A stretch of DNA of 63,727 nucleotides, counting the filler, from Dugesia japonica (Eukaryota), in NCBI GenBank assembly GCA_001938525.1. It is 6 parts of 6 records of this genome, joined end to end, with 100 filler letters (N's around TTAATTAATTAA, not from the genome) between each part and the next. Parts side by side here need not be neighbours in the genome. Positions count along the whole stretch, not along the records: positions 25,188 to 34,080 come from MQRL01615653.1; 5 more parts are not named here. One strand, 5' to 3'. Of the stretch, positions 1 to 56,029 are shown piece by piece (positions within the stretch are counted from its first letter, which is position 1; each line of letters opens with the position of its first letter). The notes under the pieces are model-generated. The model was given only the letters and a program-made list of their open reading frames with translations, had not been told where the DNA came from and ran no database searches. The position numbers were made by a program, and so were the translations under genes.

Positions 1-67
1 TTATAGGATAATCTAAATTTATTTTTAAATTATCTTCTGTTCCGACTACTAAGAATTGATGACTCAT
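1..67 (-). CDS. N-terminus of probable Polinton minor capsid (penton) protein, truncated by the window edge
   Basis: ATG at 67 gives MSHQFLVVGTEDNLKINLDYPI, which resembles polinton penton N-termini. Its position in the gene order fits. Only 22 codons are visible. Confidence 0.5.
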   Translation of the reverse strand, partial: MSHQFLVVGTEDNLKINLDYPI

Positions 68-132
68 TATTGCTAGCGATTTTCTATAGGAAAAATTTAG
101 ACTAACGTGATTTATTAACTAAAATATTTTGA

Positions 133-1016
133 CTTATATTTTTTATAAATCATGTTGGATAATAAACCTTGAGATTTTAATTTTTTACATACGGATTTAA
201 TTTCTTTAAATAAATTATTATGTCCAGATTTTGCAGCTGAAATTAATAATGTTAACTTTTCAAATAAAATAATTGGATTCCTTTTCCTTCCTTTGCCTTT
301 ATGGATTTTCCTTTTACTTTCTTTGCCTTTGTGGTTGTTGGTTCTAAACTTTTTTGTCTACCTCTTGGTTTTTGGTTTTTTATATTTCTTAAATAATTGC
401 AATATAAATCAACTTCAGTTGCTTTTACCATTTCTAAATATATTCCAATATATTTTTTTGTTTGTTCATCTGATTTTATATTTTTTTTATTTCCTGAAAT
501 TATATCTACTAAAACATCATTAAATACATGGGTTTTTTCACCTTCATCAATATAACTAAAATTTCCCCTTTTATAAAAAAATAACTCATTATCATTTTTA
601 GGAAATTTTATTGTCATGAATTTTTTATAGGGTACTTCTTTCATATTAATAGTTGTAAAATAAATTTTTGGTATTGTTAATTCTGTTAATATTTCATTAT
701 TAATTTTTAAATCAGGAAAAATAAGTGGTTGTACATCATCTTTCTTAAATATTTCAAATTTTTTATCTATGGGTTCTTCTTCCTTTATTATTAGTTGTTC
801 CTTTATTGGTTCCTTTATTGGTTGTTCTGGCATTTGTTCGGAGGTTAGCGTAGCGATTTTTGGTTCTAATGTAAGTTTTTCTAATGCTTTTATTGTTGGT
901 TTTTGTAAAAATGATAAGTTAGTTTGTAAAGTATTATAATCAAGAACTTTACTACAAAAAAAGTTATTATATTTTTCTTGAGCACTAATTAAATTTTTTA
1001 ATTCTTTAGCATCCAT
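133..1016 (-). pseudogene. Conserved Polinton protein (C-terminal L..L.LL..A..GN/H...EI motif), frameshifted near 265
   Basis: The 254-aa ORF ends ...GKGIQLF. An alternate frame continues LFEKLTLLISAAKSGHNNLFKEIKSVCKKLKSQGLL to TAA at 133-135, matching a recurrent Polinton motif. Confidence 0.7.
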
Positions 1017-1036
1017 TTCGTCTCTTTCTTGTAGAT

Positions 1037-1636
1037 TTAATGTACATCATCTTCTGTTTCTTCATCTTCGGTTTCATCTTCATCTTCATCTTCATAATCT
1101 TCTATTTCTCCTCCTTTATGTGTACTATATAGTTTTAAATAAATACCTTTTCCTTTATGAATTATTTTAAGACCTTTTTTAAATTTTTTTGTTAAACATT
1201 TAAATTTAGGATCAATATTTTTTAAATATTTATGAATCGCTGAACCTTGATATGGATTTAAATATATTCCCTGTCCTGTTGTAGTTGTAGTTGGAGTAGA
1301 TTTTTTCTGTAATTCAACCAGCTCAATTTCTTTTTGTTTTTTTATTTTTTCTAAATCTTGTACTTGTGCGGCTCTAGATTCTGTAACAGTTTTTGCAATT
1401 CCAGCTGCAACTCCAGATGCACTTGCTAAAGNNNNNNNNNNNNNNNNNNNNNNNNNNNNNNNNNNNNNNNNNNNNNNNNNNNNNNNNNNNNNNNNNNNNN
1501 NNNNNNNNNNNNNNNNNNNNNNNNNNNNNNNNNNNNNNNNNNNNNNNATTTTTACAGATTTACATTTTTTAGAATTTACTATTTTTTCTAATTCTTCTTC
1601 TGTTGGATTACTTCCACTTGTTGGATTATCTGTCAT
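1037..1636 (-). CDS. Polinton virion core/membrane-active protein (pX/pVI-like), partly in an N gap
   Basis: LASASGVAAGIAKTV amphipathic segment, a coiled coil, then two GxGIYL motifs (GQGIYLNPY, GKGIYLKLY) typical of Polinton structural precursors. ATG at 1636. Confidence 0.7.
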   Translation of the reverse strand: MTDNPTSGSNPTEEELEKIVNSKKCKSVKXXXXXXXXXXXXXXXXXXXXXXXXXXXXXXXXXXXXXXXXLASASGVAAGIAKTVTESRAAQVQDLEKIKKQKEIELVELQKKSTPTTTTTGQGIYLNPYQGSAIHKYLKNIDPKFKCLTKKFKKGLKIIHKGKGIYLKLYSTHKGGEIEDYEDEDEDETEDEETEDDVH

Positions 1637-1640
1637 TTTC

Positions 1641-4600
1641 TTAATTAACAATATGGCACATTAAGAGTCGATTTATTAATTCTAATCTAAAATGCCACAT
1701 TTCACATGTAAAACATTCAAATTGATTTCCATGGGGCGAAGTTCTAGTTGCATTATCTTCTATGATTCTTTAATCATCATATGCTATTAATGCTATTTTA
1801 TCTTGTTTTTCAATTCCAATTTCATGTAAATAAGATCTTAATGAATAATTTGTTCCATAAAATATTTTACTATGATTATTTAAAACTTCATCAAAATCTT
1901 TCATTAATAATTTATTATTTTTCTTAACACCTTTATTTCTAGAATCAAAACCTTCGATGTTATTGGTTTGATATGAATAAGCATAAGATTTTGCTTTTAT
2001 AAAATTACCTTGAGTTATTTCACAATTAGGTTTTTCATCTTTCATTTGAAATAAATTATCTCCTAGTAAACTTTCTAATTTCTCTAAATTATCTCTATGT
2101 TTTATTTCTACAAAGATACAGTCTGTATCGGTATAATGAATTTTATAATTATCTCCAATTAAAGGATCCATTTGATTGTAAATAAAATCATACATTACTT
2201 GTTTTGCATGTTCGAGGATAGTAAATCCAATATATGGAAATTTATTATATCTCAAATTACCTTTTATCATATTCATTGCTGCAACATTAGCTTCATTTAA
2301 ATCATTTAATGTGAATATTTTACTTGATTTAAAAGTTGGTTTTCTTGCAAACTTTTGATAATCTTTATCACTGTCAACAATTTCTATGTTACATCTATTT
2401 CTAATATTTTCAAGTGTCTTTCCATAGAATGCATTTAACATTAACTTATAAATGTAATCTCAGAAGACATCATTTATTCGTTTTGATTCTTTTCTTAGTG
2501 CAATTAATTTGTCTACATGATCTTTAAACCATGTAGATGTTGGCATTTTAATTTTCTTATGAACTTTTATTAGTTTCATTCCAAGTTTTAAATATAGATC
2601 TAATGTTGAACCTAGAACTGTATAATTTTTCTTGTTGAATTGATTCAATGTAAGTTTAATATTTTCCTTTCCAATTTTCTTTTCGAAACTTTTTTGGTAA
2701 TTACTTAACATCTCAGGTCTAATATTTATTCTGTCTGGACATAATGGAAAATGTATTTCTCTTGGATAATCTAGATCAACTTCATATATAAAATTTGTTG
2801 TATCTGTTGAGGTTTCATATTCTAACCCTGAGCACTCAAATAATTCACCTGTTGGTAGTGGTCTTGTCATACAACTTGCATATAAAGAATTTTCATCAAT
2901 ATATTTTATAAATGTTTCTTCTTTCCAATTTATTGGTGGAATTTTATTTTTAATTAGTGAAAATATTATATCTCCAACTTGTGCTTTATTTAATTGTCTG
3001 GTTCTTCCAAATCTAGAATTTGATTTTTCATTATTTGAAAATACTTGTCTTTCTCCTAAAACTCCAGAATATCCACCTCTAATTCCAGATTCAATTAATA
3101 AGAATTTATCATAAGTTTCAGGTTTCGCCTATTTAAGTTTAACATTTGCATTTAACATTCCAGTTTCCCATGAATATCCTGGTGCTGAATATGAATAACA
3201 AGGATCTAATTTTAAAATATTATTTAGACATGAATTTCTAAAGTTTTCAAGGAAATCAGATAATATTAAAACATCAAGTTTCATATAGTGCATCATATAA
3301 TTCCAAAGATTATCAAAATATTTAAAATCTTCTAGAAATATTTCATAATCTTCATCTGATATTTCTTTTTGTGATAGTGTATTAAAGAAATCTTCTTTCT
3401 CTGGAGTTTTATCTGATTTTAATAAATTTTCAATTTTTTGAATATTATTTCCTTTTACATATTCATATGGAAAACTAACTTTCTTCGGTCTTAAGTTGAA
3501 AGAATTTAAAATTGGATAATTATTTGATTGTGTTTATAATTTTCCCATTACTTCAACGGTTTTAAATGGAAGTAATCTTGCTGAATCTAGAAATCTAATA
3601 TTTTCATATTGAAATGAAATATAATTTTCTGATGAATGAGGTATTATTTTTTTCACTTTACCTGTGAATTTTGTTAATAATTCTCTAAAAAATAAATGAT
3701 TATCATAACTTGACGCATTATGAAAGTAAAATGGTATAAATAAATTTTTAACAGAAAGATCATTTAAGTTACAATTTGAATGTGCATATCCACGAAATTC
3801 TCCTGTGAAATGATTATGATCTAAAACTGGTTTTGCGATTATTTTATCACAATAATAACATTTTTGATCTGTAAATGTTGGATAGTTTGTGCCTGTGTAT
3901 TCTTTTATTAATTTATTTTCTTTTATATCTTGTAATTTTTTATTAGTTTCTTCTAAAAAGTTAAAGAATTCTGTATAAAGATTTTCTCCTGAAAATTCAT
4001 AATATTTTGATTCTAATAAATCTGGATATTCACTTTTAAGATAAATTCCTAAAGATATAGCTTTTTGTTTTTTAGTTTTAATATTTTTATAAGCTTCAAA
4101 ATCACCTATTAATATAAAAGGTATTTTATTTTTCATGTAAAATTTATTAAATGAATAATAATCTTTATATTCAAAAACAATGTTATTTGGTTTATGATGA
4201 ACACACATTTCTTGATGTTTTATTAAAATTTCTTCACTTGAATAACAATTCATACATCTAATACATGGATATTTTTTATTTCCATTTGCTGAAAAGAATA
4301 CAGTTAAATATCGAGATAAAACATAATGATTTTTATATATTAACAAGTTACATTTATTATCTTCTGATTTTGGATTTCTTGTGTGATGTGAAATGTGAAG
4401 TGGTTCAAGTTTTTTATTAGCATTTACTGAAAATACATTTATTTGAAAATTGTTTAATTTCTCAAATTTATTTACATCAATTATTTTCATTGGAAATGTG
4501 AAATCTGAATATTTTAAATCTGTTAAATATGGAATGTAATTACTTACACGTGTTGGATTATCAAATGGATATTTCTGAGCTAAAATTGAATATAAGAAAC

Positions 4601-5429
4601 ATTTATTATCTTCATTTTCTATATTAATAACTCCTGGTTTTGAAAATGGTAATTTAATATAAGTTGCTCCAGTTTGTGATTCATAATTAGAAAGATTTAA
4701 TTCATAATTTAATATATAGACCATGGTCCATCCTGAGCCTTCGCGATCTTCATCTTCAATATATCTTCCTAATTCTTGAAACATTTCATGTACACCATCA
4801 TCAATTTCAGTTAAAATTGTAAATGTTTTATTAATTGAGTATGATTTAAAATCTTTTTCAACATATTCATTATTTATTTCTTTTGCATATCTACATTTTA
4901 CTATCATACTTATAATAATTGCATCTTTTTTATGATTAAAATATTTTATAACAATTTGTCTCACTTCATTTTTAAATGCATTAATATTTCTAATAGGAAA
5001 AGAATATAATTTTTCCACATCATATTCCATTACTACTTTACTATTTAAAAAATAAGTTATATCAAAATCTGTGTAATGCCTAAATAAATCTCTAATACCT
5101 GCGTCATAATAAATTGCTTCTTCACCTGGAAGTTGGTCAAAATCAGCTTTAACTACCATTTGTTTATGTTTTAAAGAATTATAATGTGTTCTTGCATGAT
5201 TTTGTCTTAAAAATCTTTTATTAAAAATTTCACAGAATAATGGTACAATTTCATGATTACCACATATTGTTGCATTTAAATGAGATTGTAAATCATTAGC
5301 ACTTCTAAACATTTTATTACATTTATTACATTTAAAATTATCTGTTAATCTATAACAAGTTCTAGAACTAATGTGTCCTTTTAAACCTGCTAAATTCTTA
5401 AATGTTTTATTACAATTTTCACACTGCAT
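1641..5429 (-). pseudogene. polB: Protein-primed family B DNA polymerase (pPolB), 1262 codons in one frame with 4 internal stops
   Basis: Three N-terminal zinc fingers, EGSGW, INIENEDNKCFLYSILA, ExoI DFEA, EndoVII-type CYYC..DHNHFTGEFRGYAHSNCN and ExoII HNASSYD. Pol motifs are YIDENSLY, KLMLNAFYGK, YTDTDC and DD*R. In-frame stops at 3534 (TAA), 3129 (TAG), 2460 (TGA) and 1770 (TAA); terminal TAA at 1641. Confidence 0.95.
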
Positions 5430-5514
5430 TTTTATAAAGGAAAAATTTAATCATAGATATTAAAAAAGAGGATATTTTATATTTAAGAGGATTTATTTTA
5501 TATTTTAAAAGTAA

Positions 5515-10329: not shown

Positions 10330-11020
10330 ATATATATAGCTTTTGAGGAATCAGTTATGCAATTATGTCTGAGCACTAAAATCATACACACATTCAAACA
10401 GTCAATCATGCATTCACCTATTATCACATACATATATCAATTTACTTATATAAAAAATATTCTATTTTCTAAATTTTTAAAATTTTTGGAATTTTCATAG
10501 TTATTCAAATTGTTTATTATTCTTTTGCGTTTTAGATTTCTTTCATATAAATTTTTTTATCATTCCCAACAATCCATTCTTTGTGTAAATTTTTCCCAAA
10601 ACCCATTTCAACTGGAGATACATTCATCGTTCTCTGAATTGTGGTGTTCATCATAAATTATATTTCTGGTAAAATTCCGGCCCAGTTCCGCATTTTTTTT
10701 ATCCTGTAAACTAATATGAATAGTATCTCTTATATTTCGAAATTGTCTTTCAATTATTCCATTACTACTATGATAATATGGACTTGAGTATTGGATTTCA
10801 CAATTAAATTCCTTAGCTAATTGTTGGAATAGATTTGACTCAAATAATTTTCCACGATCTGTATGTATTATTCTCGGTGTAACATATTTCGAAATCCAAT
10901 TATTTTTAAATATTTTAACACTGGTTTTTCAATCTTGATGTGCAACTGCATTGAGATATAAAAATCTACCGAATTTTTCAATTATAGATAAAATGCATTG
11001 TTTTCAAAGATGTCATCAAC
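10330..11020 (-). pseudogene. Gypsy/Ty3 integrase fragment
   Basis: WISKYVTPRIIHTDRGKLFES...YSSPYYHSSNGIIERQFRNIRD...W...LPEI..MMN rve core on the minus strand. Confidence 0.88.
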
Positions 11021-25087: not shown

Positions 25088-25189
25088 NNNNNNNNNNNNN
25101 NNNNNNNNNNNNNNNNNNNNNNNNNNNNNNNTTAATTAATTAANNNNNNNNNNNNNNNNNNNNNNNNNNNNNNNNNNNNNNNNNNNNAA

Positions 25190-25693
25190 TTGGAACAATT
25201 AAGTAAATATTTGACGGAAAATTGTACTCAAATATTTAAGAAATATCTTATAAATGCAGATAAATATTTTGAATTCGAGCTTCAAGATGAAGTCAAAAAA
25301 GTTTTGTTTGATAATGTCTTGACAAGAACATTGGAATTAGACAAACAACAATATTCTCCTACAGATATGAAGGGAGGTGAATTCAAAGCTATTACCAAAT
25401 CGAAAATAATGAAGTTACATCAGCAAATGTTCATNNNNNNNNNNNNNNNNNNNNNNNNNNNNNNNNNGGATGTTAGTGTACCTTTGTTGAAATCAATATG
25501 GATAGAAAAGCGTGAAACTGATGAAGTATTACAAATAATAGTTGAGAATCAAATGTATTTATCTATTGCAATATCATGTGTAAACAATATAGAAATTAAT
25601 AGACGCGATGATAACGGAAAATTAATAAAGTTTCCAAAACATTCAAAAACTCATTTAACTTTGCATACTAGAAAACTGAATAATGAATCCTGA
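25190..25693 (+). CDS. Polinton minor capsid (penton) protein, C-terminal part
   Basis: DVSVPLLKSI...MYLSIAISCVNNIEINRRDDNGKLIKF....THLTLHTRK matches the penton C-terminal pattern. Confidence 0.82.
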   Translation: MEQLSKYLTENCTQIFKKYLINADKYFEFELQDEVKKVLFDNVLTRTLELDKQQYSPTDMKGGEFKAITKSKIMKLHQQMFXXXXXXXXXXXXDVSVPLLKSIWIEKRETDEVLQIIVENQMYLSIAISCVNNIEINRRDDNGKLIKFPKHSKTHLTLHTRKLNNES

Positions 25694-25958
25694 TATTTAT
25701 TCATTGTATAGTACTAGTCAAGCAGGTGAAGAATTACCTTTCTTTCTTGGAAAATAGTATGTATCTGGTTAGTTGAGAACAATAGGTAGATTTACTTTAC
25801 CGATTCTTAAACGTATTGGTTATTTTGGTATGAAAACCGCTCAGGATGTACTAGCTAATGACCGAAAAATACTATCCACATTGAAATTTGATGCATTAGC
25901 TGAACTTGGAAATGTTATGTCATCATTACTTAGCGGAGTAATCAGTATGATTTCTTAA
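25683..25958 (+). pseudogene. Small Polinton core/pX-like protein (Y..QAG..LP.F.G type)
   Basis: MNPDIYSLYSTSQAGEELPFFLGK*YVSG*LRTIGRFTLPILKRIGYFGMKTAQDVL, located between penton and major capsid, with two stops. Confidence 0.72.
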
Positions 25959-25959
25959 G

Positions 25960-27027
25960 TAGCAAACATATTACCGCAAAGTAAAATTATATGAAAGTGA
26001 AGGTAGTTGATCAGACTGGTAAAGATTTGACTGACACTCATGATGCAGTTCCGAGTAATTATATGTTACATACTCTTTTTATGGATGTAATTTTTGGTTT
26101 AATAATTTAAAAATTTAAGGTGGAAATGGATCTTATCATCACAAAGCATTGATTGAAACTATAATAAATTATAATGGTGATACTAAAAATATCTGTCTTT
26201 CAGCAATGGGATATAGATCAGAAGCAGATAGAAAAATGTCTATTAAAATACCAAAACAATTGGCTCTATGTGATTTATTGCAACTCTATTACATGGATCA
26301 ACCAAAATACCTTATTTCTGGTGTTAATCTTCATATTCGGTTGAAACGATAATTTTCTAAGATTTTATTGGAATCTGCAGCTAAGGAACCTAGATATGTA
26401 TTACTAGATTCAAAATTAANNNNNNNNNNNNNNNNNATGAACCCTCAGTACTAGCTGCTAATCAAATGGAACTAAAAAAGCAAAATGCTGTTTATCCAAT
26501 AAGAACCAAAAGAAGTGGTTGCATTTACAATTAGTAAAGATAGTTCATCATTTTATAAGGAACAAATGTTTGGTCATCGTCGATTACCTAGCTTTATTCT
26601 GGTTACATTTTAAAGTGGAGAACAATGTAATGGTAGTTATAAAAGCTCGAGTTCAACATTTCAAAGTCTTGATACTGTTTCTGTTTCCTTGACAAAAAAA
26701 CACTGATTATCGAGAAATATATACTCAAAATTTTACAAACGATAATTCTAACACAAAAAATATGCAATCTATAGTAAGAAATATCGGATATTTGGATAAA
26801 AATATGAATTGTGGAATAACACTTCGAGAATTTAAGGATAATTATCCCTTCTTACATTTTTTCTTGCTCCACATTTTGATGTAAATCAGAGTTAATTACC
26901 TCAACAAGGGAATTTGAGATTAGAAATCAAGTTTGCCAAAGCTTTAAAAACATCCGCATGTGCTATAATTTATGGGGTATTTGAAAAAGAAATTAAAATT
27001 TAAGAAAACGGAACAGTATTAGTGTAA
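25960..27027 (+). pseudogene. Polinton double jelly-roll major capsid protein (hexon/PY), N-terminus missing, multiple frameshifts
   Basis: NYMLHTLFMDV, YHHKALIETIINY, DQPKYLISGVNLHIRLKR, AVYPIR, RLPSFILV and GNLRLEIKFAKALKTSACAIIYGVFEKEIKI. Confidence 0.9.
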
Positions 27028-27089
27028 ACAGTATGTTGTGTAATTGGTACATGTTATGAAGTAAGTGTTATTTTATTAGTGATTTTTAT

Positions 27090-27460
27090 TTTAATAGTAC
27101 TATTCAACAACTTTGGTTCAGATTGATTGGATTGCATTAAAGTAGCTTCGATCAGCATGGCGAAGTGTTTATACGCTAGATAAACGTCCAAAATATATTC
27201 CAGTAATCAATGCCTTAATTTTCAGTACTCTTACATCAAATCTAGGTGGAGAACATTGGATAGCTGTTTACAATAAATCTGCTCGAATACTAGTATTCAA
27301 TCCATTAGCATTTTATTATCCATCAATGTTGGTGACACACTTCTTGAAAATATCAAAGCCAATAGTCTACAATAAAATTAAATATCAAGATACATTTACA
27401 ACTGCATGTGGTCAACACTGTTTATTATGGTTTAAAAAACAGCATTGTACTTACAATATT
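27090..27460 (+). pseudogene. Adenain-like (C5) maturation cysteine protease
   Basis: GGEHWIAV (catalytic His), VFNPL (Asp position reads Asn) and KYQDTFTTACGQHCL (Gln/Cys). Confidence 0.88.
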
Positions 27461-28089
27461 TATTTGTTCTTGTTGTAAAAAAATTAATGTCTTTTATTGA
27501 AATGAAATCTTTGTAATTTACTAANNNNNNNNNNNNNNNNNNNNNNNNNNTTTATAAAATATTTGTAAGTAATATGCTATTAATACATGTTTTTATTATT
27601 ATTTTGACACGTTTTATTATCAAAAAATTGAATTTGATTTAAAATAGAGCAACGTAATATGTCTGCAATAATTTAAATTTATTTGACATTTTAAAAACAC
27701 AATCGAATTTGATTGATTAGATTTGGAAACCTTGGTAAAAGTTATTATTATTCATCACAATTTCAAATTATTTTTACAAAACAAATGAACGATTCAAGAG
27801 AGCTTAAAGTAATTTATTATTATTATTAACATTATTAACTTTTATTTTTAGATTTATTATGAATTCGTATAAACAAAATAGGAGAAGATTTATTTCAACT
27901 ATGAATGCTNTNATTTATGATTGTTATTATTTATTATTTATAAATTAATTAAATTATTTAGAATNTTGACGAAATAAGACAAGGAGGTAAAGGATCTCGA
28001 ANGTTCGTGAACGNGGATTCGCATTAGTTTTTTTTGATTTTATTATNTTTTTTTATAANTTAAATTTTAGTAAGACAAACTATTATTAT

Positions 28090-28432
28090 AATTTATTATG
28101 AAAAAAAAATATGCTATGTTACAAAACCATATTCTATGCTATGATTCATACTATTATATTATGAAAAAATGCTCTATGTTTTTTTATGAAACAGTTCTAT
28201 GCTTTTATCATTTTGCATTAAAAATTACCTCTCTAATATGATTAATTTTAGAAAATTACCTCGCTAATATAATTTTTATTGAAAATCCCATCGCTAATGA
28301 GATTTATTGATTAAAACTTACTACACTAATGTTTTTTATGGAAAAATATCGTAGTTAATATATTTTATAATGAAAAACCTTATTAAAATCATTATGTTAT
28401 TATTAAAATTATTACATTATTATTAAATTATT
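28090..28432. repeat. Degenerate ~30-bp tandem repeats upstream of pPolB B
   Basis: Repeated AAAATTACC(T/A)CGCTAATAT-like and TTCTATGCT-like units. Confidence 0.6.
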
Positions 28433-28435
28433 TTA

Positions 28436-31400
28436 GAACATTGCCGATTGTACAACCATTGCGCGAGTGCGAGTCACAATGGTGATTGCCATACTANNNN
28501 NNNNNNNNNNNNNNNNNNNNNNNNNNNNNNNNNNNNNNNNNNNNNNNNNNNNNNNNNNNNNNNNNNNNNNNNNNNNNNNNNNNNNNNNNNNNNNNNNNNN
28601 NNNNNNNNNNNNNNNNNNNNNNNNNNNNNNNNNNNNNNNNNNNNNNNNNNNNNNNNNNNNNNNNNNNNNNNNNNNNNNNNNNNNNNNNNNNNNNNNNNAA
28701 AACGGAAGAAGAAACAACAAATATTGTACAAGAAGAAGGAATAAATATTACATCAGATCATTGGAACAATTTTGAAATAATTGATGAACTCGATGAAGAA
28801 GATTTTGTGTTTCGTGAGTTGATGAATGTAGAAGAAGCGGAAAATAATCAACTTTGTGGATCAGCAAATATAACTGTGAATGATGGAGTTATTGTAGAAT
28901 TGGATTTGTATCGTTGTCATAGGATACTTAAAATAAATGTTTCAAGATGGAATTGTCTTGAAATAATTTTACCAGAAGCAATAGTTGCAAAATTTTTTAA
29001 GACAATAAAAAAGGTGAAGCAAGTTAAAATTCAATTCGGGGTACATGTTGAGTTCAAAGGGATAACAACAACTGCTGATGGAGAGGAAGAGGAGTTTAAA
29101 ATCTGTAGAATATCAAATAGACCCGTTGGATTAACTGATAACTTTTTTGTATGTTGTACAGAATACTGGAAATTAATTTCAAAATCACAAAAGTTGCAGA
29201 TATTGGTCGACTTTCGGGGAAAAGTTATATTCCAATACCGAAAGATTTAAAAATAAAAATGGCAATAGTAAAAATAAAAGAACTATGATAATGACTGTTT
29301 TATTTACAGTATTCTTGCTATCATCAACATTATATAAAAATACATGTTGTAGCTTGTATTTGATGAAGTAAATATGCCGATGAAACTGATTGATATACCA
29401 AACTTTGAGAGAAATAATCCAGGACTATCCATCAATATCCTATCATGGAACCAAAAATCAGTGGATGATGAAGAAGAGAAAGTAATCATGAAACCTCTGA
29501 ATTGGGACATAATACACCGATCAAAAGTGATAGATGGAGAGAAAATCTATCTGTTATTATGCAACCAATGTAATTTAAGTAGACAATTGCATATTCAACT
29601 ACCAGTGGTCTTTTATAATTTACGAAAATATGATCTTCATCATATTCTCAAGTATGGTATTAACAAGTTCAAGAATTGGTCAATATCATGCATCCCATCA
29701 GCAACAGAAAATTTTCTATATTTAATTGTACGGCAAAATCAAACAACAACTAAATTCATTAACAGCTATCAGTTTAAAAATTTCTCATTGGACTCTGTTG
29801 TCAAATCCTTAAAAGCGACAATTTTGACTACAGAAAAGTTTAAGAATCAGATTATTACCAAGTCAAAGGAGAAATTTCCGTACAGTTTGCAACGAGCTTA
29901 CAGGTTCACGAGGAAACAAAGTAAATGTCACCAAAAGGGGAGTAAGTTAGCAGGGAAGAGTATAAGAAAGCATTATCGATGTGGGAAATATTTTCATGTA
30001 CAAATTTGTTGGACTATATGATGTTATATTTAAAGTTGGATGTATATTTGTAGCAGATTTTTTCCAGCAATTCAGTCCAAAGTCTTTAGCACACATTCAA
30101 TTTAGAGCGGTTTAATATTTTNNNNNNNNNNNNNNNNNNNNNNNNNNNNNNNNNNNNNNNNNNNNNNNNNNNNNNNNNNNNNNNNNNNNNNNNNNNNNNN
30201 NNNNNNNNNNNNNNNNNAGGTATAAGAGGAGGATTAACGTTCGTTAACAAGCACAATGTTGCCACTAGTGAAAATGTTGACTTTTTGTATATAGATGTTA
30301 ATAATCTATATGGTTTGGCACTGAGTCAAAAGTTGCCCTATGCAAATTTTGAGTGGGTCTATGATGGATTAGATAGGATTTTGGAAGAGTTTATGAATGA
30401 AGTCCTAGACTCATTACCATATGGATATACACTAGAGGTTGACGTGGTGATTCTTGCAGAAGTTCATGATTATTTGAATGATTTACAAGTTGTTGCAGAA
30501 CAAAGAAGCGCTCCAGGTTGTAAATTGAAGAAATTAATGTTAGCACATTACTCCAAGACCAATTACGTAGTGCACTGAAGATTGCTTCAAATGTATTTAA
30601 GTTTAGGAGTTCAAGTAACAGAGGTTCATAGAGGAATTAAGTTCATCCATGCTTCAATTTTCGTGAGTTATATCAACACCAACACAATTCTCAGGTCAAA
30701 TTGTGTTACAGAATTAGAAAAAAACTATTATAAACTGTTAAACAACAGTTTATATGGAAAATCAATAGAGAATCTTAAGAACAGGATCAATATGCACTTA
30801 TGTAATTCAGCAAAGAAGTTGATTACATATACATCAAAAGCCGGATTTAAGAAAACAACAAAAATTGATGATGATTTGATAGCAGTTCTTCTTAATGAGG
30901 ATATAGTTTGTTTAGATCGTCCGAGCTACATAGGAAAAACAGTGCTGGACTTGAGTAAACTACGCATGTACCAGCTACAGTATTTATAGGTTTAAAAATA
31001 TCAAAAGGAAAAAGAATTAATATTGTGGCCGGCGATACAGACAGTTTCTTTTGGGAGATAGAAGATATAAGCTTAGAGAAACTTACTAAATTAATGGGTT
31101 AAAGATAAGCTCCTGGATACTTCAAAGTACAGTAAAGAACATCTTCTTTATTCAAATAAATTAAATTCAGTGTTAGAGAAATTCAAGGACGAAAATAAAG
31201 GGGAGAAGTACCAGGAATGGGTTTTTTGAGGCCGAATAAGAACAGCATGAGAGCAAAAAGCATAAAATTGCAGAAAACTGAAATTTCTCATCAGTCTTAC
31301 CTTGACTCTTATAATGAGAACAAATCGTTCTCAGTAGAGCAATTCAGAATAACATCTAATAACCATCAGCTCTACAGCATTAAGTCAACCAAAATAACAT

Positions 31401-31456
31401 TAATAAACACGGACGATAAGCGGGTATTGGTTAATAAAAATCACAGTGTCCTGTGA
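28436..31456 (+). pseudogene. polB: Protein-primed DNA polymerase B of Polinton B, internally deleted and frameshifted
   Basis: DNDCFIYSILA, PMKLIDIPNFERNN..SINI, CNQCNL..PVVFYNLRKYDLH, GIRGG, YIDVNNLYG, KLLNNSLYGK, GDTDS (~31031), FKDE and DDKR. The start is approximate because of an N gap. Confidence 0.92.
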
Positions 31457-33037
31457 TCATTTGTGAATTCATTTTTGTGAATTCATTTGTGAATGTATAA
31501 CTGGTCTTCTTTAGAACCAAAATTGTACATTGTTGAATTTATTTGAAATAAAATATGTTATTTATACTATTAATTTTTATTATTTATTAAGTTTTATTAT
31601 TTATTAAGTTTTATTATTGCAAATATGCATTGTGTATGACGCAAGCATGCATTGTGTATGACACATGCATGTTAAATATAAACAAAATTAATTTAAATGT
31701 CCATTAATATTTAATTTGGACTTTATTATAGAAGAAATGCTTGAAAATATTGATAGAAATTATTTTGTATCTGAACTTAAAATATTACCAACAATTGAAG
31801 AAGGTCCTTTAAAAATATTTAATTAAAAACTATATGTTTAAAATAAAAAAAGCCTTTGATTAAATAAGATTTATTACATAACATTGAAAAACACAGAAAT
31901 ACAACATTTAGCCGTAAAGTAAAATCTTTCACAACCAATAAACAAGATGTTGGTGTGATTTTTTGACATTGCTTACTGGATCTAAACTATTAATTAATAA
32001 GTTTACATAAATTAAAAATATATTACCGCTATTTTTCTTCCTACCCACACGACACTGTCGTTGTTTTCCAAATTCAATGGGCAGAGCTTGCATTTTAACA
32101 TTTGTTTTGTTTATGTTGATTATTTCTGGACTATGATATTGAATGTCCATGTTCAATTTATTAGTAATATTTACTTCTTCCTTATAAATCTCTATAGTTG
32201 CTGTTGGTGGATCAAGTTCAAAAAACCTTACCAAGTTTTACATTAAAAATGTCATGTATTCAAGAACTTTTGGTACAATTGAAGTTTTTTAATGCTTTCT
32301 TCTTTCTTAATACCTAATTAAATATTAATTATTGTATTAATATTAATAATGATATTACCACCAAACTATCAAGAAATTGAATTTCTATCAAAGCATACAG
32401 GCCTTTCGTAGTTTCTTCTCCAACTTATGTCTATACAACGAAATTTTGTTGTTGGATATCTCTGTCATTGGCTTCATAAACGGTTCCGGATTGTATTCAT
32501 TCTTTATTAACTACATACCTATTCAAATTGTTCATATAATTCAGTGTATAGGATTGATTGACGATTGAAAACACTTCGTATCCTTCATTGTGTAGAGAAT
32601 CTACATTATCTTCATTATCTGTGTTGCATATATCTATCTGCTTGAGCATTTCATATTGCTTGTGTGATGAATTGCGAATATCTACCATTTTGAAAATAAT
32701 GAAATATTTAAAAGAATCTCTATTTATATATTTGTTGTGTATGTATGTATAATTTTATTGGTTGTAGAAGGAATAAAAACAAACCACGAACCAAATGTTA
32801 ATAAATTGAATACATCTTCTTTTAAATTAATATTGCTTAAATTTAAAACCATATTTTTAACACCAAACTTATAAATACCAAATAATTTCCTAAGATTTAA
32901 AAGTTTTTAATTCTGTGATGTAATTTATTAGACAAAAAAATGATCGTGTCAGTTGATCCTTTGAAATATTTAGCAATAAAGTTTTATTTTAAACGGCGTT
33001 ATTTATTTTGTATTAAACATTTGCCATCAATTTTTGC

Positions 33038-33085
<48 letters not shown>

Positions 33086-33760
33086 NNNNNNNNNNNNNNN
33101 NNNNNNNNNNNNNNNNNNNNNNNNNNNNNNNNNNNNNNNNNNNNNNNNNNNNNNNNNNNNNNNNNNNNNNNNNNNNNNNNNNNNNNATGTAAAACCTATT
33201 CTTATAGACAACTCTGTCAATGCAAAAGGTGAGGTCCAACGAGTGATAAGAAACAAAATCCCAATTAATCGATCAGCTCTTAAAAGTCTAAATTCCAGTG
33301 CAAGATGTTATATGTTTGAAAGCTGTAGTGGATAAGAGAAATTATAATAGCTAAACAAGAGTGAAAATTTTTACATGACTCACCAGAAATTTTATGCGCC
33401 TCTTCAGCAATGAATGGAGACAAGCAGTGGATAAATCTTATCACAACAGAAACTTGCGGGATCAAATGTAGGACGGATCACTCTACGAAAATTTTTTCAA
33501 ATGATCAGCAACCTTTAATACCTTGAATTAGTTTCATTTTTTAAATATTTAGCAACTTTTTCTTCCTTAAATTAGTTGTAATCTTTATTTCTAACTGATC
33601 GTCAATCTTGATTACCTTGAATTAATGTTTTTAATTACTTTTTTGAATCCATTATTATGAAAATAATAATAATAATAATTTAACTTAATAGTTCAGTTTT
33701 AATCATTTTAAAAAATTTATTAGTATCAGCTAAGTTAATTATTAACATTTATTAATTATC

Positions 33761-33792
<32 letters not shown>

Positions 33793-35069
33793 TATAATAA
33801 TAATTATAAATAATTATGATAATAAATAATAATAATAAAATTTTGTTGATTTATTATCAGGATTAATTTTATATTTTTTTAAATATTTTTTAGAATGAAG
33901 CGATTGTTTCATTATTGAAGTTGCAGTGCACAATCAACTGTGATCACAAATTTTGTCGTGAAAGTTAGGTTATTATTGATTTCGATAATTTTCCAACTAA
34001 TTTTTATGTCTATTTTGATGAATCAATTTTCAGAATAATCATCAATAATTTCATTTGTTAAAACAAACAATGTCTACTGTNNNNNNNNNNNNNNNNNNNN
34101 NNNNNNNNNNNNNNNNNNNNNNNNTTAATTAATTAANNNNNNNNNNNNNNNNNNNNNNNNNNNNNNNNNNNNNNNNNNNNATTTATTAAAAATGTCTTAA
34201 TGGTTTAATTTTATTAAACATGCCAATTTTATTGAAAAATTTAAAATCTGTATAAAAATAAAACTCATACGATAAATATTGCAAGAATTATTTGTTACTT
34301 TTACTGATGATTTCAAGGTCAAATATTTAAAAATCTAATTCTCGTATTTTGTTTATTATACATATTTATTAATATATCTTTTGTAATGCGCAAGTGTTTT
34401 TTATTATGAATATATTTCGTGAATTTATTTTTTAACTGATTAGTTTTTACATTCTCTTATTGTTTAATATTTTATGATTTTACATATGTAATTTGTTATG
34501 TATTATAAATATATTACTGGGATTTCTTTTTAAATTAAGATCAAAGAACCGTAACAAAAAATTATATAAATGAAATATTTGATAATCAAATTTGGCAGTT
34601 TATTTGTTATTTTAATAAAAACAATTTGTTTCTTTTTCATTTAATGAAATTAAATTTTTTGATCAAAATATTAGTGATAAATAAATTTGTGTTGAAATTA
34701 TTAATTTTTTAAATCTAAAATTTTATGTAGTTGTAAAGATCTTTTGAATCTGGTTTGTGGCAAAATATTTTAGTTGATTACGTTTGCTTGTCCACTGTTT
34801 TAATATAGATGAGTGACATGCAGTGATATTTGTTNNNNNNNNNNNNNNNNNNNNNNNNNNNNNNNNNNNNNNNNNNNNNNNNNNNNNNNNNNNNNNNNNN
34901 NNNNNNNNNNNNNNNNNNNNNNNNNNNNNNNNNNNNNNNNNNNNNNNNNNNNNNNNNNNNNNNNNNNNTTTTTTTTGTTAACCATTAATTGTATATAAGC
35001 AAAATTTGGTACTACCTTGTTATTGCAGGCAACGTTATTATTCGTTTGTTTTACTTTTTTCACAACGTC

Positions 35070-38685: not shown

Positions 38686-40300
38686 TATCTCCCTTCTTAT
38701 GAAACTTTCCACATTTTTCTACATTTCTTTCTAATCGCTGTTCATCTTCTCCTTTCGTGAATTTTCTCAGTTATTCGATAAGATCCTTCAAATCTGTCTT
38801 AACTTTTATTTCTTGTTTCTACTTTGATGAGTACAAAATCGNTTCCTTAGAATTCTCAATTAGTAGTCACGTCTGAAACGTTTTCTTTAGTTGTTTCTAA
38901 AATTTCTGACTCATATCACTTTTCTCTGCTGATTTTCTTTCCAAATTCGATTTCAACTGGGCTTTTTCCTGTCGTCATCTGCTTTGTTGCGTTCATTGTA
39001 AAAGATCTGCTCAATCTGTTGTCTTTCTCTCCTAAAGTGTTGCATTAATTAAATCTCGAATTGTCCTGATCTGCCTTTAATTTCTCCGTTTGTATTGTGA
39101 TAATAAGGACTCGAAAAGCAAAGTTTAATATCTAGCTTCTGGGCAAATTCTCTCACATCTCTTGATTTAAAGTTTTTTCCACAATCTTATTTCTGTTGGG
39201 CATCCAAATCTCAATACCCCCTTCTCAAAAAGAGCTTTTCCCATTGTATCCTTATCTTGTGCTATAAGAACCTGATATTTACTGAACTGGTCGATTATTC
39301 CATGAATGTATTTTTTCCGTTTACTTGTTTCCCACAATAGCTCACATATATCTATGAATATGACTTTAAACAAATTGGTAGCTTCTGACAAAATTCACAA
39401 CTACGAACTATTTCATGTATTTGGCTCCACAAATTCTTCACAAGGTATTTGTTCCTTATTATTTTCGTACACTTTTTCAACTCTTGTATGATATAATAGT
39501 TTAAGTATTTTTTATATAGTCTCATGTATTTTGTCATCCGGAATTTCTAGTTCCTCTTCTTTTTCCTTTTCAATTGTGTTCAGTATTCTTGTTTTAATCT
39601 TTCATTTCTTGGCATCTTCATGTGACATTTGAAATTGTAAACACACTTCAAATCTTAGTCTAGATAACATATCTGTATCACCATGTTGAATTCCTTTTCC
39701 ATATTTCAAAACCATGTCTAGACTACTCAGATAATTAATCTATGGTTGGAATTCTGACGTAATTGGTTTCTTTGTTGTCATCATGACTGTAAGCGCTTTA
39801 TGATCTATTCTAAGAGTAAATCTTCTATCCTACAAATAATGCTTGGAATACATGCAGAAATTAAAATCCAATATTTCCTTTCGTGTAACGCAGCACCCCT
39901 GTTCATGACTCGTCATTGAGTGTGATTCATAGGCAACAACTCTTTCTCTTCCTTCTTTATCTCTCTATGACAATATTGATACAATATTGATGTAATTTTA
40001 TCAAAACTGGCATCTGTATCTAAAATAAATTCTTTGTTTATGTCTGAAAAACACAATTTTGACGCAGACATTAGAGCTTTCTTCAGATCCTTAAAAGTAT
40101 TGCTTATTTCAACTGCTCATTCTAATTTCTTGCTGCTTAGTCCACTACACAACTGTTCTAAGATCCTTGATTTTCTTGCCTAGTTTTCTATAAACCTCCT
40201 GTAGTAATTTCAAATTCCTAAGAAACTTCATAACTTCTTCACGCAGTTAGGTTTGCTAAATTTTTGGATTGCTTCCATTTAAGTCGGATCAGTTCTAAAC
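38686..40300 (-). pseudogene. Gypsy pol (RT end, RNase H, integrase) with polypurine tract
   Basis: FILDTDAS, RVVAYESH..VTRKEIL, FTLRIDHKAL, GIIDQFSKY, GCPTEI and FSSPYYHNTNG. PPT-like AAGAAGGGAGA at ~38688-38698. Confidence 0.9.
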
Positions 40301-46871: not shown

Positions 46872-47851
46872 TTTATCAAATAACAAAAAAAAATTTTTGA
46901 TCGAAGCTTTTATTTTAAATGAATTTAGAAAAACTATCAATGGTTACGTCCAACAATTATTCTCGCAATAATTGCAATTATGAAATCAATTTTAATATTA
47001 AAATTTCAAAAAATTAGTTAATTAAAACAAGAATGGTCTTTTTCGTTGATTTTCCGTGAAAAAATAAAATTTCCGAGTAGTTACGAAACATATTGCGAAA
47101 TTAATATTATCGCGAATTTCATAGCCCTTACGTAACCTTTTGCGTAATCATGTATGTATAACGTCGCAATGGTTCACTGATTACCTAATAAATTGTAAGA
47201 AAATTCGTCCAACTCTACGTTAATTGCGTCTATGGGGGGGTGGTGCGGTGCGCCACTATCCTGCTACTTCTTTCTTCCATGTTAAATGTTACCAACTTTG
47301 GATAAATGCAGATTTCTTTAAAAATATTTCTTTATATATAGTTCTTGTTAACAACATTAAATGTTTAAGTGTGTTAACGTTTAATATTTTAATGAATATT
47401 TTATTAATTTCAATTAAATAAAGTATTTATATATAAAGACCATTAGATTAATAAGACAAAATTTTCAAACACACCAAAATATAACACAATCGATAACGAA
47501 TAAATTAGAAAATCTCGAGATAACTTGAAATTAATTTTCTGAAAGTATTTGAAGTAAAAAGTAAAGTTTTGATTTTGGATTAATGCGAATTATCATGACT
47601 AATCACCTATCAAGGGCTAATCACCTTTAAGTTATGTAATTTCCGTAAAGAAATGGTGGATGTATTATAAATTATAGAAATTTTAAATTAATAATCAATT
47701 ATGAAGATAATTTGTAGCCGACAAGCATGTATTTATTATTATCCAATCAGAAAATCAACTAATCATAATTTCAGATAGATTCAGACTAGAAGTTTGTATA
47801 AAATCCTAATTTAATTGAGATTGAAATTACTAAACTATAAACTTTGTAAAA

Positions 47852-48985
47852 ATGAATAATTTAGGAGAATTAAAAGCAAATTACAGTCATATTGATACTC
47901 CGTACGACATGGTTTATTCTTGCAGTTTGTTAAAGGATGCAAATTCAACCGGAAATTTAATGACATGCTATTTAAGTAAGGTTTTAGGTATTACTTCGGC
48001 ATATATTTTCCCAGTCTTTGCCAGTTTCGGTTTAATTAGTAATTTATTGATTTTCTATATATTTTTTATTAAATATTCTAAAAAAACTCGACAAACGGTC
48101 TTACTTTCATTTTTAGCTATCGCAGATTTTTCCTTTATTTTATCTTTCGGTTGGTTATGGGTTTTTCCAGCTAAAGGTTTACCATTTGCCAGTGACGGGG
48201 CAATATATTTATTTTTAATAAATACAAATGACTTTTCTTGTAGATTATTTAGAGGTTTTTATACAGTTTGTTCAACATGGACTTACGGTGCATTTCTAAC
48301 TATATGTTTTGATAGAATGTTGGCTATTTATTTCCCAATGAAAATGATAAATTTCGGCTATAAATCAGCAATAATCGGATCGTTTTCTATGTTGATAATT
48401 TGTTGTTTAGTAACATGTCTTTATACGGCATTTGTAAGATCAATAAAAATCGGATCGAAAATATTTTGTACAGCTATGTCAGGTTATAATTCATCGCTTT
48501 TAGATTTTTTGAAAATCTACCGAATATTATTTGTATATTCTGGAATTGTTCCATTAGGAATGATTCTATTACTAAACATGTCATTGTTATGGAAAATCAT
48601 TGAACAACAAAGTAAAATGAAAAAACTCAGTGAGTCTGTATCGAAAAATACGAAAAAAGAAATCAAAGCAACAATTATTGTTTTATTATTAACAATTTTC
48701 TTTCTCATTGGTAGTGTACCACTAATTGCGTTGGATTTTCTTATTATTTCAACGCAAAATGTTAATGATGGATCGAAAGAGATACTCGATCAGTTGCAAA
48801 TCTTCTACAATTTAATTGATACTGGAGCTCATTTGACGTTTTTGATGGAATCGATAAATATTTTTATTTACTACACAAAAATGAAACGATTCAGAATGGA
48901 ATGTCTAAAGCTTATTGGAATAAAATTCAAAAACACTCAAAACCAACGAACATATCAAGAAAATATTTCAACCAACCAATTATAA
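47852..48985 (+). CDS. Intronless rhodopsin-class orphan GPCR, platyhelminth PROF1-like, 377 aa
   Basis: Seven hydrophobic segments with TM1 G..SN, TM2 LAIAD, WVFPAKGLPFASDG, a Cys before TM3, FDRMLAIYFP (DRY variant), ECL2 FC and TM7 NIFIY. The ORF is intact. Confidence 0.92.
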   Translation: MNNLGELKANYSHIDTPYDMVYSCSLLKDANSTGNLMTCYLSKVLGITSAYIFPVFASFGLISNLLIFYIFFIKYSKKTRQTVLLSFLAIADFSFILSFGWLWVFPAKGLPFASDGAIYLFLINTNDFSCRLFRGFYTVCSTWTYGAFLTICFDRMLAIYFPMKMINFGYKSAIIGSFSMLIICCLVTCLYTAFVRSIKIGSKIFCTAMSGYNSSLLDFLKIYRILFVYSGIVPLGMILLLNMSLLWKIIEQQSKMKKLSESVSKNTKKEIKATIIVLLLTIFFLIGSVPLIALDFLIISTQNVNDGSKEILDQLQIFYNLIDTGAHLTFLMESINIFIYYTKMKRFRMECLKLIGIKFKNTQNQRTYQENISTNQL

Positions 48986-52669: not shown

Positions 52670-53065
52670 TTACTTAGTTTGTTTGTACACAGTAATACCA
52701 TCAGGATTGAAAATATCGGTTCTCACCCTCAGTTCGTCTGAACATTGTTATGTAAAGTCGAGAAAAATATAACCATGTGATTTTATTGTTGCATCTTGAA
52801 ATGATTCAATAAGAAATTGTCTATTATTAGGATAAGCCTGTCTTGCTAGAAAATTAACAACTGTTTTATCTATTGGATTTTTAAATAGAACCAAGTATTG
52901 TATATTTAAATTACGCGTCCTATGACTTCCACCTTGATGGAATAATATTTGAGTAATGATTATAACAGTCACATTACAATGTCTGCTTATTTTTGTAAAT
53001 AAATTATTAAAGTCTTTTTCTTTGTTTGCCTCCTGATACAGATCATCTACTACGATAACATCTTT
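52670..53065 (-). pseudogene. Polinton A32/FtsK-like packaging ATPase, C-terminal half
   Basis: Walker B IVVDDL, LFTKISRHCNVTVIIITQ, RTRNLNIQYLVLFKNPID, HGYIFLDF and LRVRTDIF. One internal stop; Walker A is missing. Confidence 0.9.
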
Positions 53066-53789
53066 TTTTTTATTAAAATATTACTACTTAAATAGAGTTA
53101 ATTAAAGAGACAAATTAATAAATAACATTTATTATAATAATGACATATATATATTAAATATCAATATTTTGCATCATTTCTTCTTGTTTCAATGATAATG
53201 CATTTATTTTGCTCATATNNNNNNNNNNNNNNNNNNNNNNNNNNNNNNNNNNNNNNNNNNNNTTAATTAATTAANNNNNNNNNNNNNNNNNNNNNNNNNN
53301 NNNNNNNNNNNNNNNNNNAAAAGCTTTTCTTAATGAAAACATCAAAATAAAAATAAACATCACTAGAACAATTTACTAATACTTTTATTTATCTTATAGG
53401 ATGATCGGCCAACCGTCCACTTCGTCTTTGATCCATTGGCTTATTTTTACAATTCATTCCACTCTCACAGTTTTGAGTTCTGTTTATTAACGATAACTCG
53501 AAATCTGGATATTTCTATTTAATTAATTTTCGCCGTATTCTATTATCATTTCTCTTTAATTTGCTCCAATTTTTCTCTAATATTAATCATGTTCGTCCAA
53601 CTTTAGACTTCATTTATTAATCAGCGTTTAATTTCCTTTGAATTTGCAGCTACTTTGCACCAGATTTTTATCTTTTAACTTTTATCAGCTTGAAATCAGC
53701 GTTTAATTTCTTTTCAACTTCATCAAATATAATTCGTTTTCCGAATTTCATGATCCATTTTTCTTCTTTCAATTCTTCATCTAAAAGCT

Positions 53790-56029
53790 AGTTCATAAGG
53801 TTAATACACCTAATAATTATGTTCGTCTTTGAAGTTTTTGATATTATTTTACTGTCGTCAGACGCAGTCAAATTATATGAAACAGTAGATTCGAAGATTG
53901 AAGATTTCGAAACCAGGCGTAGAGAAGCATTTTCAAAGCCCGCAGACCTGGGTATGGATCTAATTAATGCCTTGAAATATCGTAAACTAAATGAATCCTC
54001 AATTTCATTTTTTTCAAAAGTTTAAAAATTAGCAGATAATATTCTGNGTCACCAGTTAACAAAGGAAAATTTCGTCAAATTCCTTTTACAAAATTCAATG
54101 GACGATAAAGAAGTTAAAAAGGAAATTAAAATGCGAGATATAGAAGATGGGGAAAAATGAAAGAAGTTATAATTAAAATTGATGGATTAAAAAAAGAAAT
54201 GGAACCAGAATATGGAATATCAGCGTTGAAGAAAAAAGTTACATATGCAACAGTAGTGTGTGAAATTCCAAATTCAAATAATAGATTCAATAAACCAAGA
54301 TTCAATGAAAATTTAAATTAAAGTAAAAATTATGAACAGAAATATGATTTCAAGATATATCGAAGAAATAATGGAAATTTTACGAGAGGAAATTATGAAT
54401 CCAATGTTCAGACTTTCAGAGTTAGAAAACTTTGTATATGCAGTGAAGAAGGTCACATCCGGTCACAATGTCCTAATGTTAAATGTTTGCATTGTAACAA
54501 TCCAGGACATCTCTGATTTCAATGCCATGAAATTAATCCTCTGAGAGCAGAAGACAAATGTAAAACAAGCAACGAAGATTTCAAATGAATGCCTATAATG
54601 ATGATGATTATAATGATGCCTGTTCCAGTGATGGAGTAGATCAAGGAGATTATTCGGGACATTCCAAAGTTCTGATGAGGGAGGATGCAGTTGAAGCTAT
54701 AAATCTAGGTTAGATAATAATGTTTTGAGCACTAATGTATGTGATATGAATGCTTGTGAATGTTTGTTTGATGAAAATAATGAAAATTCTAAAAAATTGA
54801 ATAATTTAGTTTGCTTGAATGAATGTAAATATTTGTTGATTAAGGATTTATGTAACAAAACTATAAAATATAAAGATGAATATTTTATAGATAATATTTT
54901 AATTCCTAATGGTGTTTCAGTTTTAAATTACGGATTTAAATAATGCAAATTTAATAAATAATTATGAAAATAAGATTGTTTTTAAAATAAAACCTTCAGG
55001 AAGACCTGGTTTAAAGTTTAAATTAAGTAACGAAGTAAATGTTGATTGTTTACTTGATACTGGCGCTAAGATTAATGTGATTGACCATGAAATATTTTTA
55101 AAATTAAATATTACTAAAATAAAAAGTGAATATATTAATGTTACTTGTGCTAATGAAACCCAACTAAAAATAATAGGAGTATTATATTAAAAGTTACACT
55201 TAATAATCAAACAGAATATATTAAGTTATATGTTGCAGAAAATATTTCTCCCTGTGTTATTGCAGGAATTGATTTTTTTATCGAAATTTAATATAAAATT
55301 AAAAATACTAAATTATATTAATAAAGAAATTTTGGAAATAAAAATTATGAACTTTAAAAATGAAGTAAATAAAAATATTAGTGATTTAATTGAACGATTT
55401 TCAGAAATCTTTATGAAAGTTAAATGGGATGTAGATAAGACTACACTATTTAAACATGAAATTGTTAACCACAATGGTCCTGTTGTAGTAAATTCTTGGC
55501 AACAACCTATTCATTTAGATGAATAAATTAATAAGGCTATTTTAGAAATGGAAGAAAAGGGTATAATTAAACAATGTGATTTTTAGTGGAATAGTCCATT
55601 AGTTTGCGTTTGAAAGAAAGAGAAAATATACATTAGAATTTTCCTAAATTTTAGATTATTGAATAGTATAACGGAGAGACCATTGTTTCCAATACCAAAT
55701 ATAGGAGAAATGCTTGACATTTTGAATGGATCAAAATATTTACAACTTGTAAGATTTGGGTAATGCATATCACCAGGTAGAATAAGAGGAAATTTCAAAA
55801 TACAAAACGGCATTTTCTACAAAGCTTGGTCAATTTTGCTTTAACCGAATGCCATTTGGAATAGCTGCAGCACCAGCAACATTTCAAAAATTAATGGCAA
55901 AAGTGTTAGGACCATTAAATTGTAAGAAGCAATTGTTTATCTTGATGATATACTGATATTTTCTAAAACTAAGAAAGAGCATACCAAAAGATTGGATAAT
56001 GTTTTTTAATCAAATTAAAAATTCAGGTT
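53790..56029 (+). pseudogene. Gypsy gag-protease-RT (degenerate)
   Basis: Gag with double CCHC knuckle (~54430-54530), CLLDTGA (~55047-55067), WNSPL, RMPFG and YLDD (55938). Confidence 0.92.

Follow-up and report, generated by a model that had tools for sequence, protein, structure and literature searches.

Polintons (Mavericks) replicate a linear genome from its ends by means of a protein-primed type B DNA polymerase (pPolB) and insert it with an integrase, and their ATPase, capsid proteins and protease would build a particle. The closest described systems to the Polinton copy considered here (element B, positions 25188-31456 of the window, i.e. the whole 63,727-nucleotide stretch of Dugesia japonica DNA that was analysed) are the adintoviruses, whose virion modules and polymerases fall into Alpha and Beta classes. 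In the parts of the literature available to us, Starrett 2021 (PMC8502044) describes contigs that join an Alpha PolB to a Beta virion module (Parasteatoda) and proposes horizontal transfer, and Buck 2024 (PMC11071296) names the pairings AA, BB, AB and BA; among the 67 adintoviruses in the accessible portion of the latter's naming key 12 are BA, 13 AA, 25 BB, 2 AB and 15 other, and the key also lists an unsubmitted endogenized Schmidtea adintovirus. The same body of work reports recent pPolB swaps in nematode Polintons (Jeong 2023, PMC10748475), common module reassortment with tandem insertion suggested as a route (Barth 2026, bioRxiv 10.64898/2026.10.13.758929) and homing endonuclease inserts in pPolBs (Krupovic 2024, PMC11161782). 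We found no paper on the B family in this literature, whose supplements, unread by us, may bear on the point, possibly with a closer flatworm relative. The Beta/Alpha class mix of B is the published BA pairing, already known in spiders and other animals. Our preferred explanation, to which we assign a probability of roughly 0.88, is that B is a dead, truncated Polinton copy with a Beta capsid module and an Alpha endonuclease VII-bearing pPolB, whose pairing is likely an old, inherited one and not a product of this host.

The window joins six stretches, of which the one under study (25188-34080) begins at base 1 of contig G000:C615653, within the penton gene, whose 5' part lies beyond the contig start. 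Examination of this contig confirmed the motifs named in the initial annotation; these and others lie on the plus strand: the penton end motif LHTRK (25661), YSTSQAG of the core protein (25707-25727; its spacing is Y...QAG, one residue more than the Y..QAG originally written), GNLRLEIKF of the major capsid protein (MCP; 26908-26934), HWIAV (27254) and CGQHC (27407) of the protease, and DNDCFIYSILA (29287), FERNNPGLSINI (29404), CNQCNL (29560), GIRGG (30219), DVNNLYG (30294), NNSLYGK (30741), GDTDS (31031) and DDKR (31412) of the pPolB. The MCP, core protein and pPolB frames are interrupted by stops and frame changes, which are many in the MCP, where the first ~60 codons are also missing. Relative to other copies, ~310 bp are gone at 25988, ~60 bp at 29147 and ~600 bp at 29559; the last deletion took out most of the endonuclease VII insert and left CNQCNL as its remnant, just as the initial annotation had read it, and Pfam Endonuclease_7 scores above its cut-off in other B copies (25.1 bits in L009 and 27.1 bits in L019). 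Since intact relatives match the window by tblastn at E-values of 6e-94 (MCP) and 1e-141 (pPolB), these gene matches are not due to chance. Pfam DNA_pol_B_2 matches the window pPolB piece slightly below its cut-off (E 1.3e-5), and Pfam returned no match for the MCP, penton, core and protease pieces.

Comparison with published sequences, done by eye where the class of B is concerned, places its two modules in different classes. In the available part of the Buck 2024 protein file, the Terrapene adintovirus (BB) has a hexon ending in GNLRAEIRF and, next to it, a YYKAQAG core protein, the PolB insert of Mayetiola (AA) reads RDHCHLTGKYRGSAH..CN and RDHCHLTGKYRGSAHFTCN, and Parasteatoda combines a GNLRIELKF hexon and a YSNQAG core protein with a RDHCHLTSKYRGALH PolB; more generally, PolBa entries there carry IRGG and an RDH.H.TG..RG insert, and PolBb entries FEFLGC..HGC and GGRT. 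The intact MCP relatives of B (P0001-P0022) share 36-72% identity with a B copy, and a profile of these relatives picks up the F54H12.2-like MCPs of Tiliqua (E 4e-75) and Amia (E 5e-63), the former closely resembling the Terrapene hexon by eye. The predicted structure of the intact MCP relative P0001 matches double jelly-roll (DJR) capsids, and that of the intact pPolB relative P0075 comes closest to bidnavirus-like and adintovirus PolBs; the Alpha PolB is likewise placed near bidnavirus PolB in the accessible part of Starrett 2021. Thus, of the features of a Beta-class virion module B shows the Terrapene-cluster hexon type and the core gene, together with a weak match only to a GasderminX-like ORF (in L011, L017 and L104, named by motif likeness only), and of those of an Alpha-class PolB it shows the RDH.H.TG..RG insert, IRGG (by eye) and, through P0075, the bidnavirus-like fold. 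With a Terrapene-type hexon and core and a Mayetiola-type PolB insert, B therefore mixes classes: its capsid module is Beta and its endonuclease VII-bearing pPolB is Alpha. The initial annotation had assigned the GNLRLE/QAG capsid and the EndoVII-type pPolB to different groups, and this agrees with the Terrapene and Mayetiola references, although the mix itself was already published.

Among described systems, the likeness is greatest to the BA adintoviruses (Parasteatoda BK011008 in Starrett 2021; Adinto12437 and Adinto18043 in Buck 2024, as far as these sources were accessible), whose hexons carry GN(I/L)R(L/I)E.KF and whose core proteins carry Q(A/V/I)G as in B, and whose PolBs share RDH.HLT.KYRGA.. 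with it. Adinto12437 and Adinto18043 have the same hexon and core motifs as B, and Adinto12437 also the same PolB insert (VRDHDHLTGKYRGAAC, against RDHDHFTGKYRGAAC in the B copy L009). B differs from these viruses in being a decayed multi-copy family, and the likeness was judged by eye, outside the trees; the P0208 hexon, which resembles those of Adinto12437 and Adinto18043 by eye, falls outside B's clade. The Terrapene box turtle adintovirus (Beta/Beta) and vertebrate Mavericks have the capsid class of B and the same genes (penton, core protein, hexon, adenain, ATPase and integrase), but B's MCP is only 24-28% identical to this type (Tiliqua, Amia) and its polymerase is of the other class. 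Conversely, the Mayetiola barley midge adintovirus (Alpha/Alpha) has the PolB class with endonuclease VII insert seen in B, but also a short Alpha hexon and penton and the PLA2X typical of the Alpha module, none of which occurs in B. The nematode Polintons of Jeong 2023, in the part of that paper at hand, resemble B in bearing a distant polymerase on an otherwise typical element; there, however, near-identical elements of one species bear either of two polymerases with 16% identity, whereas the trees of B agree, and neither a copy nor a relative with its capsid was seen to bear a polymerase of the other class. The marks of a recent swap of this type, discordant trees and a donor family in the same host, were not found for B, though the search for a donor was not exhaustive.

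The window copy is a single decayed representative, lacking its ends, of a Polinton family present in multiple copies. DNA searches of the same genome returned at least 71 matches for the B capsid module and at least 116 for the B pPolB; the copies are ~75-90% alike and every one examined is broken. Nineteen other contigs with the B protease were inspected, 13 of which extend at least 2 kb past it, the other six being too short. A B pPolB lies 0.4-1.9 kb downstream of the protease on the same strand in 10 of the 13 informative contigs (9/12 when only contigs picked by the capsid search are counted), a recurrent linkage of the two modules. Read across the family copies, the element runs from a left terminal repeat through ATPase, integrase, penton, core protein, MCP, protease, spacer, pPolB and right arm to a right terminal repeat. 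A terminal motif occurs past the pPolB in L101, L102, L104 and L108; L011 has it in inverted form upstream of its ATPase, and ~0.8 kb of the left end there is a reverse match (73-86%) to the right ends, i.e. terminal inverted repeats (TIRs) seen across different copies. A retrovirus-like (rve) integrase lies upstream in L011, L016, L017, L022 and L023 (Pfam rve, E 4e-5), and the packaging ATPase was found in L011 and L017. With pPolB, rve integrase, DJR capsid, penton, ATPase, cysteine protease and TIRs all found in the family, B is a Polinton/Maverick (adintovirus). Elsewhere in the window, in another stretch (52679-53080, minus strand), a packaging ATPase piece is 73% identical to that of L029 and likely comes from B or a sister family.

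A metagenome scan yielded 69 loci, in 11 long ones of which the ORFs were read; four of these (L029, L037, L039 and L083) encode a pPolB, in each case with Pfam Endonuclease_7. The FEFLGC..HGC/GGRT polymerases we take to be the 'VSR-type', and the VSR-like motif scanned for is absent from all four of these pPolBs. Scans of a viral contig set found no relative. The B pPolB is 43-50% identical to those of L029, L037 and L039, 53-54% to P0080, P0081 and P0083, and 26-27% to that of element A, another Polinton at window positions 1-5450 (rows from the window copy and L015B); projected on A it is still 35-39% identical to A as against 53-57% to P0080 and P0083, and an unprojected tblastn search ranks the same proteins first. 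Trees were built for pPolB (a 65-row FastTree and a 22-row IQ-TREE) and MCP (72 and 16 rows). In the pPolB tree B nests among its relatives, several starred branches from A, with the clades (B,P0080,P0083,P0091) and (L029,L037,L039,P0070,P0072) each at 100/99; in the MCP tree (B,P0001,P0013,P0054) at 93/94 is sister to (L029,L037,L039,P0017,P0019) at 90/88. The two genes thus show the same two sister groups, the order within groups being partly unresolved. Forcing a clade of the A and B pPolBs is 109 log units worse (p-AU 6.6e-5); a search with the A polymerase piece returned only five distant proteins, which leaves the A side of the tree thin. Pairwise MCP and pPolB identities are correlated (rho 0.86, p 1.5e-4, nine pairs; 0.71, p 8.5e-4 without L083), B's two rows being taken from different copies. 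The closest MCP relatives of B are P0001-P0004 (P0001 is 68-74% identical to B copies), and, pairwise, the L011 protease is 46-52% identical to those of L037 and L039 and 30% to that of family A, and the L011 integrase 54-55% to those of L029 and L039. L083, whose MCP is 27% identical and whose pPolB falls in a different Alpha subclade, is compatible with a single very old Alpha/Beta event or with several. The clade also carries a TBP-like gene (L029:2160-2618, L017:5116-5286, L104:194-684 and L039:225-722; Pfam TBP, E 2.7e-17), and L039 an ORF that by eye resembles a ubiquitin-conjugating enzyme.

Because the nearest relatives of B's pPolB are of its own capsid type, the trees agree and the A+B grouping is rejected, an origin of the pairing in this host is disfavoured and the pairing is likely inherited; the intact metagenomic relatives bear the same two modules, observed or inferred. 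We propose that an ancestral virus acquired the Alpha polymerase long ago when Alpha and Beta adintoviruses recombined, an origin that Starrett 2021 proposed for elements of this sort, and that this event may be placed in the ancestor of a wide clade, before the B family entered the host. Descendants of the ancestral virus would have handed down both modules together, and one of them might then have entered the germ line through its integrase, multiplied with its own pPolB and decayed. Several observations weigh against this reconstruction. The link to the pPolB is missing in 3 of the 13 informative contigs (C634241, C613880 and C627359), and the element frame is pieced together from different contigs, in none of which both ends and a target-site duplication were seen. 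A forms a long branch and the AU test was run without a mixture model; four of the nine MCP-pPolB pairs are inferred only from equally long contigs, and the pairing evidence does not include polymerases of P0001-P0004; the protease, penton and integrase were compared pairwise only, trees being confined to MCP and pPolB. Finally, the pPolB of B lies on the same strand as the capsid genes but on the opposite one in all four intact relatives, and the region was therefore rearranged at some time. The strand difference, the C634241 element and the C579954 chimera (both below) keep alive a small chance that sister families re-joined recently, which does not extend to A and B. B extends the known adintoviruses with Beta capsid and Alpha polymerase by an endogenous multi-copy family and by a clade of intact relatives from metagenomes. 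If the pairing is as old as we propose, it shows that a 'hybrid' of this kind can persist as a stable lineage with co-descending modules and need not be a fresh chimera; this bears modestly on the classing of these viruses by capsid versus polymerase and reveals no new mechanism.

The alternative that survives best, although we regard it as improbable, holds that the Alpha/Beta mix is old but that a more recent exchange or flip among close sister BA families, possibly inside the host lineage, gave B its present polymerase arm. Besides the strand of the pPolB, it draws on contig C579954, where a sister-family left half (80-89% identical to its own copies and 67-76% to B) stands with B's pPolB and right end, and on the repeat at the module border, which also occurs in a terminal repeat. 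However, only a single copy shows the C579954-type junction, which passes through a deletion, trees at such depth cannot separate a flip from a swap, and the MCP and pPolB distances are compatible with joint descent. A wider version, somewhat less improbable but still doubtful, would make the genome a mixing ground in which Polinton families insert into or next to one another and swap arms, B's flipped, repeat-bordered arm being the scar of a sister-BA re-joining in the host lineage and C579954 the process caught in the act. The C579954 locus itself (L104, junction near L104:4160) is a dead chimera in which the TBP-like gene, ATPase, integrase, penton and MCP come from a sister family and, across a deletion, the spacer, pPolB pieces, right arm and terminal motif of B follow. 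The sister family is a second multi-copy Beta-capsid family (L116:2100-4600 and L136-L153; 67-76% DNA identity to B), downstream of whose capsid copies none of six stretches contained a whole pPolB, two showing no more than weak short matches. L116, with a B polymerase beside a sister-family capsid, was considered as a swap and rejected: B right terminal-repeat sequence lies between them (by eye), which makes them neighbours. Distinct Polinton families are often separated by no more than a few kb (L009:3555-5715, L015:334-1503, L016:5300-8900, L107, L111 and L128), among them a third Beta MCP (43% identical to B's), a PLA2-like gene module and inverted or A-type polymerases.

The initial annotation had instead proposed that B's polymerase was replaced from a lineage co-resident in this host, considering it of the same type as that of element A. 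This holds at the class level, Alpha-class motifs being common to both pPolBs, but no further, as they share only 26-27% amino-acid identity and no blastn match. The neighbouring Polinton families in this genome (L015, L016 and L107) and the documented nematode swaps would make such an exchange conceivable; nevertheless, we regard it as very improbable and an in-host swap from A as not supported. The test of the A+B clade refutes A as donor, B's pPolB clusters with relatives of its own capsid, and no B-type MCP or core gene occurs in any of 14 A-family loci; the congruence of the MCP and pPolB phylogenies is the very outcome named beforehand as refuting an in-host replacement. No other in-host donor (a pPolB more than 55% identical to B's and linked to an Alpha capsid) was seen, though no exhaustive search was made. 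Element A lies on C608461 and is not a genomic neighbour of B; its own MCP was not found in the 14 loci, in which the protease is followed by a long ORF. Family A appears to be younger, polymerase frames of 1,000-1,450 codons persisting in several copies, and its window copy has a single frame with three internal stops.

That B is a capsid remnant and a polymerase remnant inserted independently and adjacent by chance is about as improbable, for although C634241 holds a capsid module inside its own ~430 bp inverted repeats without a pPolB, and the spacer minisatellite (28180-28375) resembles the inner part of that repeat, order and spacer are common to 10 of the 13 contigs, the same terminal repeat stands outside both modules, and there is no terminal motif within 27470-28500. 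An element boundary in 27470-28430, which the initial annotation had offered as the mark of two adjacent insertions, was not found, and the spacer (27479-28438) contains no AGTAG or CTACT and only short low-complexity matches to element right ends. In the C634241 element (G000:C634241:6143-13440; L017/L018), inverted repeats of 86% identity flank a B-type capsid module together with remnants of an ATPase and an integrase; the element is likely a non-autonomous derivative.

The features of the window copy are collected in the table; the Beta-class core protein gene is named Cupiennin in the part of Starrett 2021 available to us. Two candidate ends were rejected. The sharp end of family similarity at 32794 is a cut in the window copy, short of the terminal repeat, and terminal repeats are absent from this copy; the 28180-28375 repeat is a minisatellite directly followed by the polymerase frame.

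Table. Features of the element B copy, in window coordinates
Feature	Position	Strand	Basis
Penton (minor capsid protein), 3' half	25188..25693	+	tblastn of L029 penton E 6e-15; 28-37% to L029/L039 pentons
Beta-class core protein gene, YSTSQAG, broken, 3' end lost in ~310 bp deletion	25683..25987	+	E 1e-20; motif; published reference sequences
Beta-class double jelly-roll MCP (F54H12.2-like)	25988..27027	+	sequence comparison, trees, class anchor, structure model of the intact relative P0001
Adenain-type maturation protease (HWIAV ... CGQHC)	27060..27478	+	41-49% to L037/L039 proteases, 30% to family A protease
AT-rich spacer common to the family, degenerate minisatellite at ~28180-28375	27479..28438	.	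other copies 66-88% identical
Alpha-class protein-primed DNA polymerase B, broken, endonuclease VII insert mostly deleted at 29559	28439..31456	+	motifs, trees, start inferred from other copies
Family right arm, decayed minus-strand frames	31484..32794	.	common to family copies

Other stretches of the window contain pieces that by eye resemble the protease, reverse transcriptase and integrase of LTR retrotransposons (10608-10928, 39107-39394 and 54927-57775), and an intact 383-codon frame for a host 7-transmembrane receptor (47834-48985, plus strand; Pfam 7tm_1, E 7e-13).

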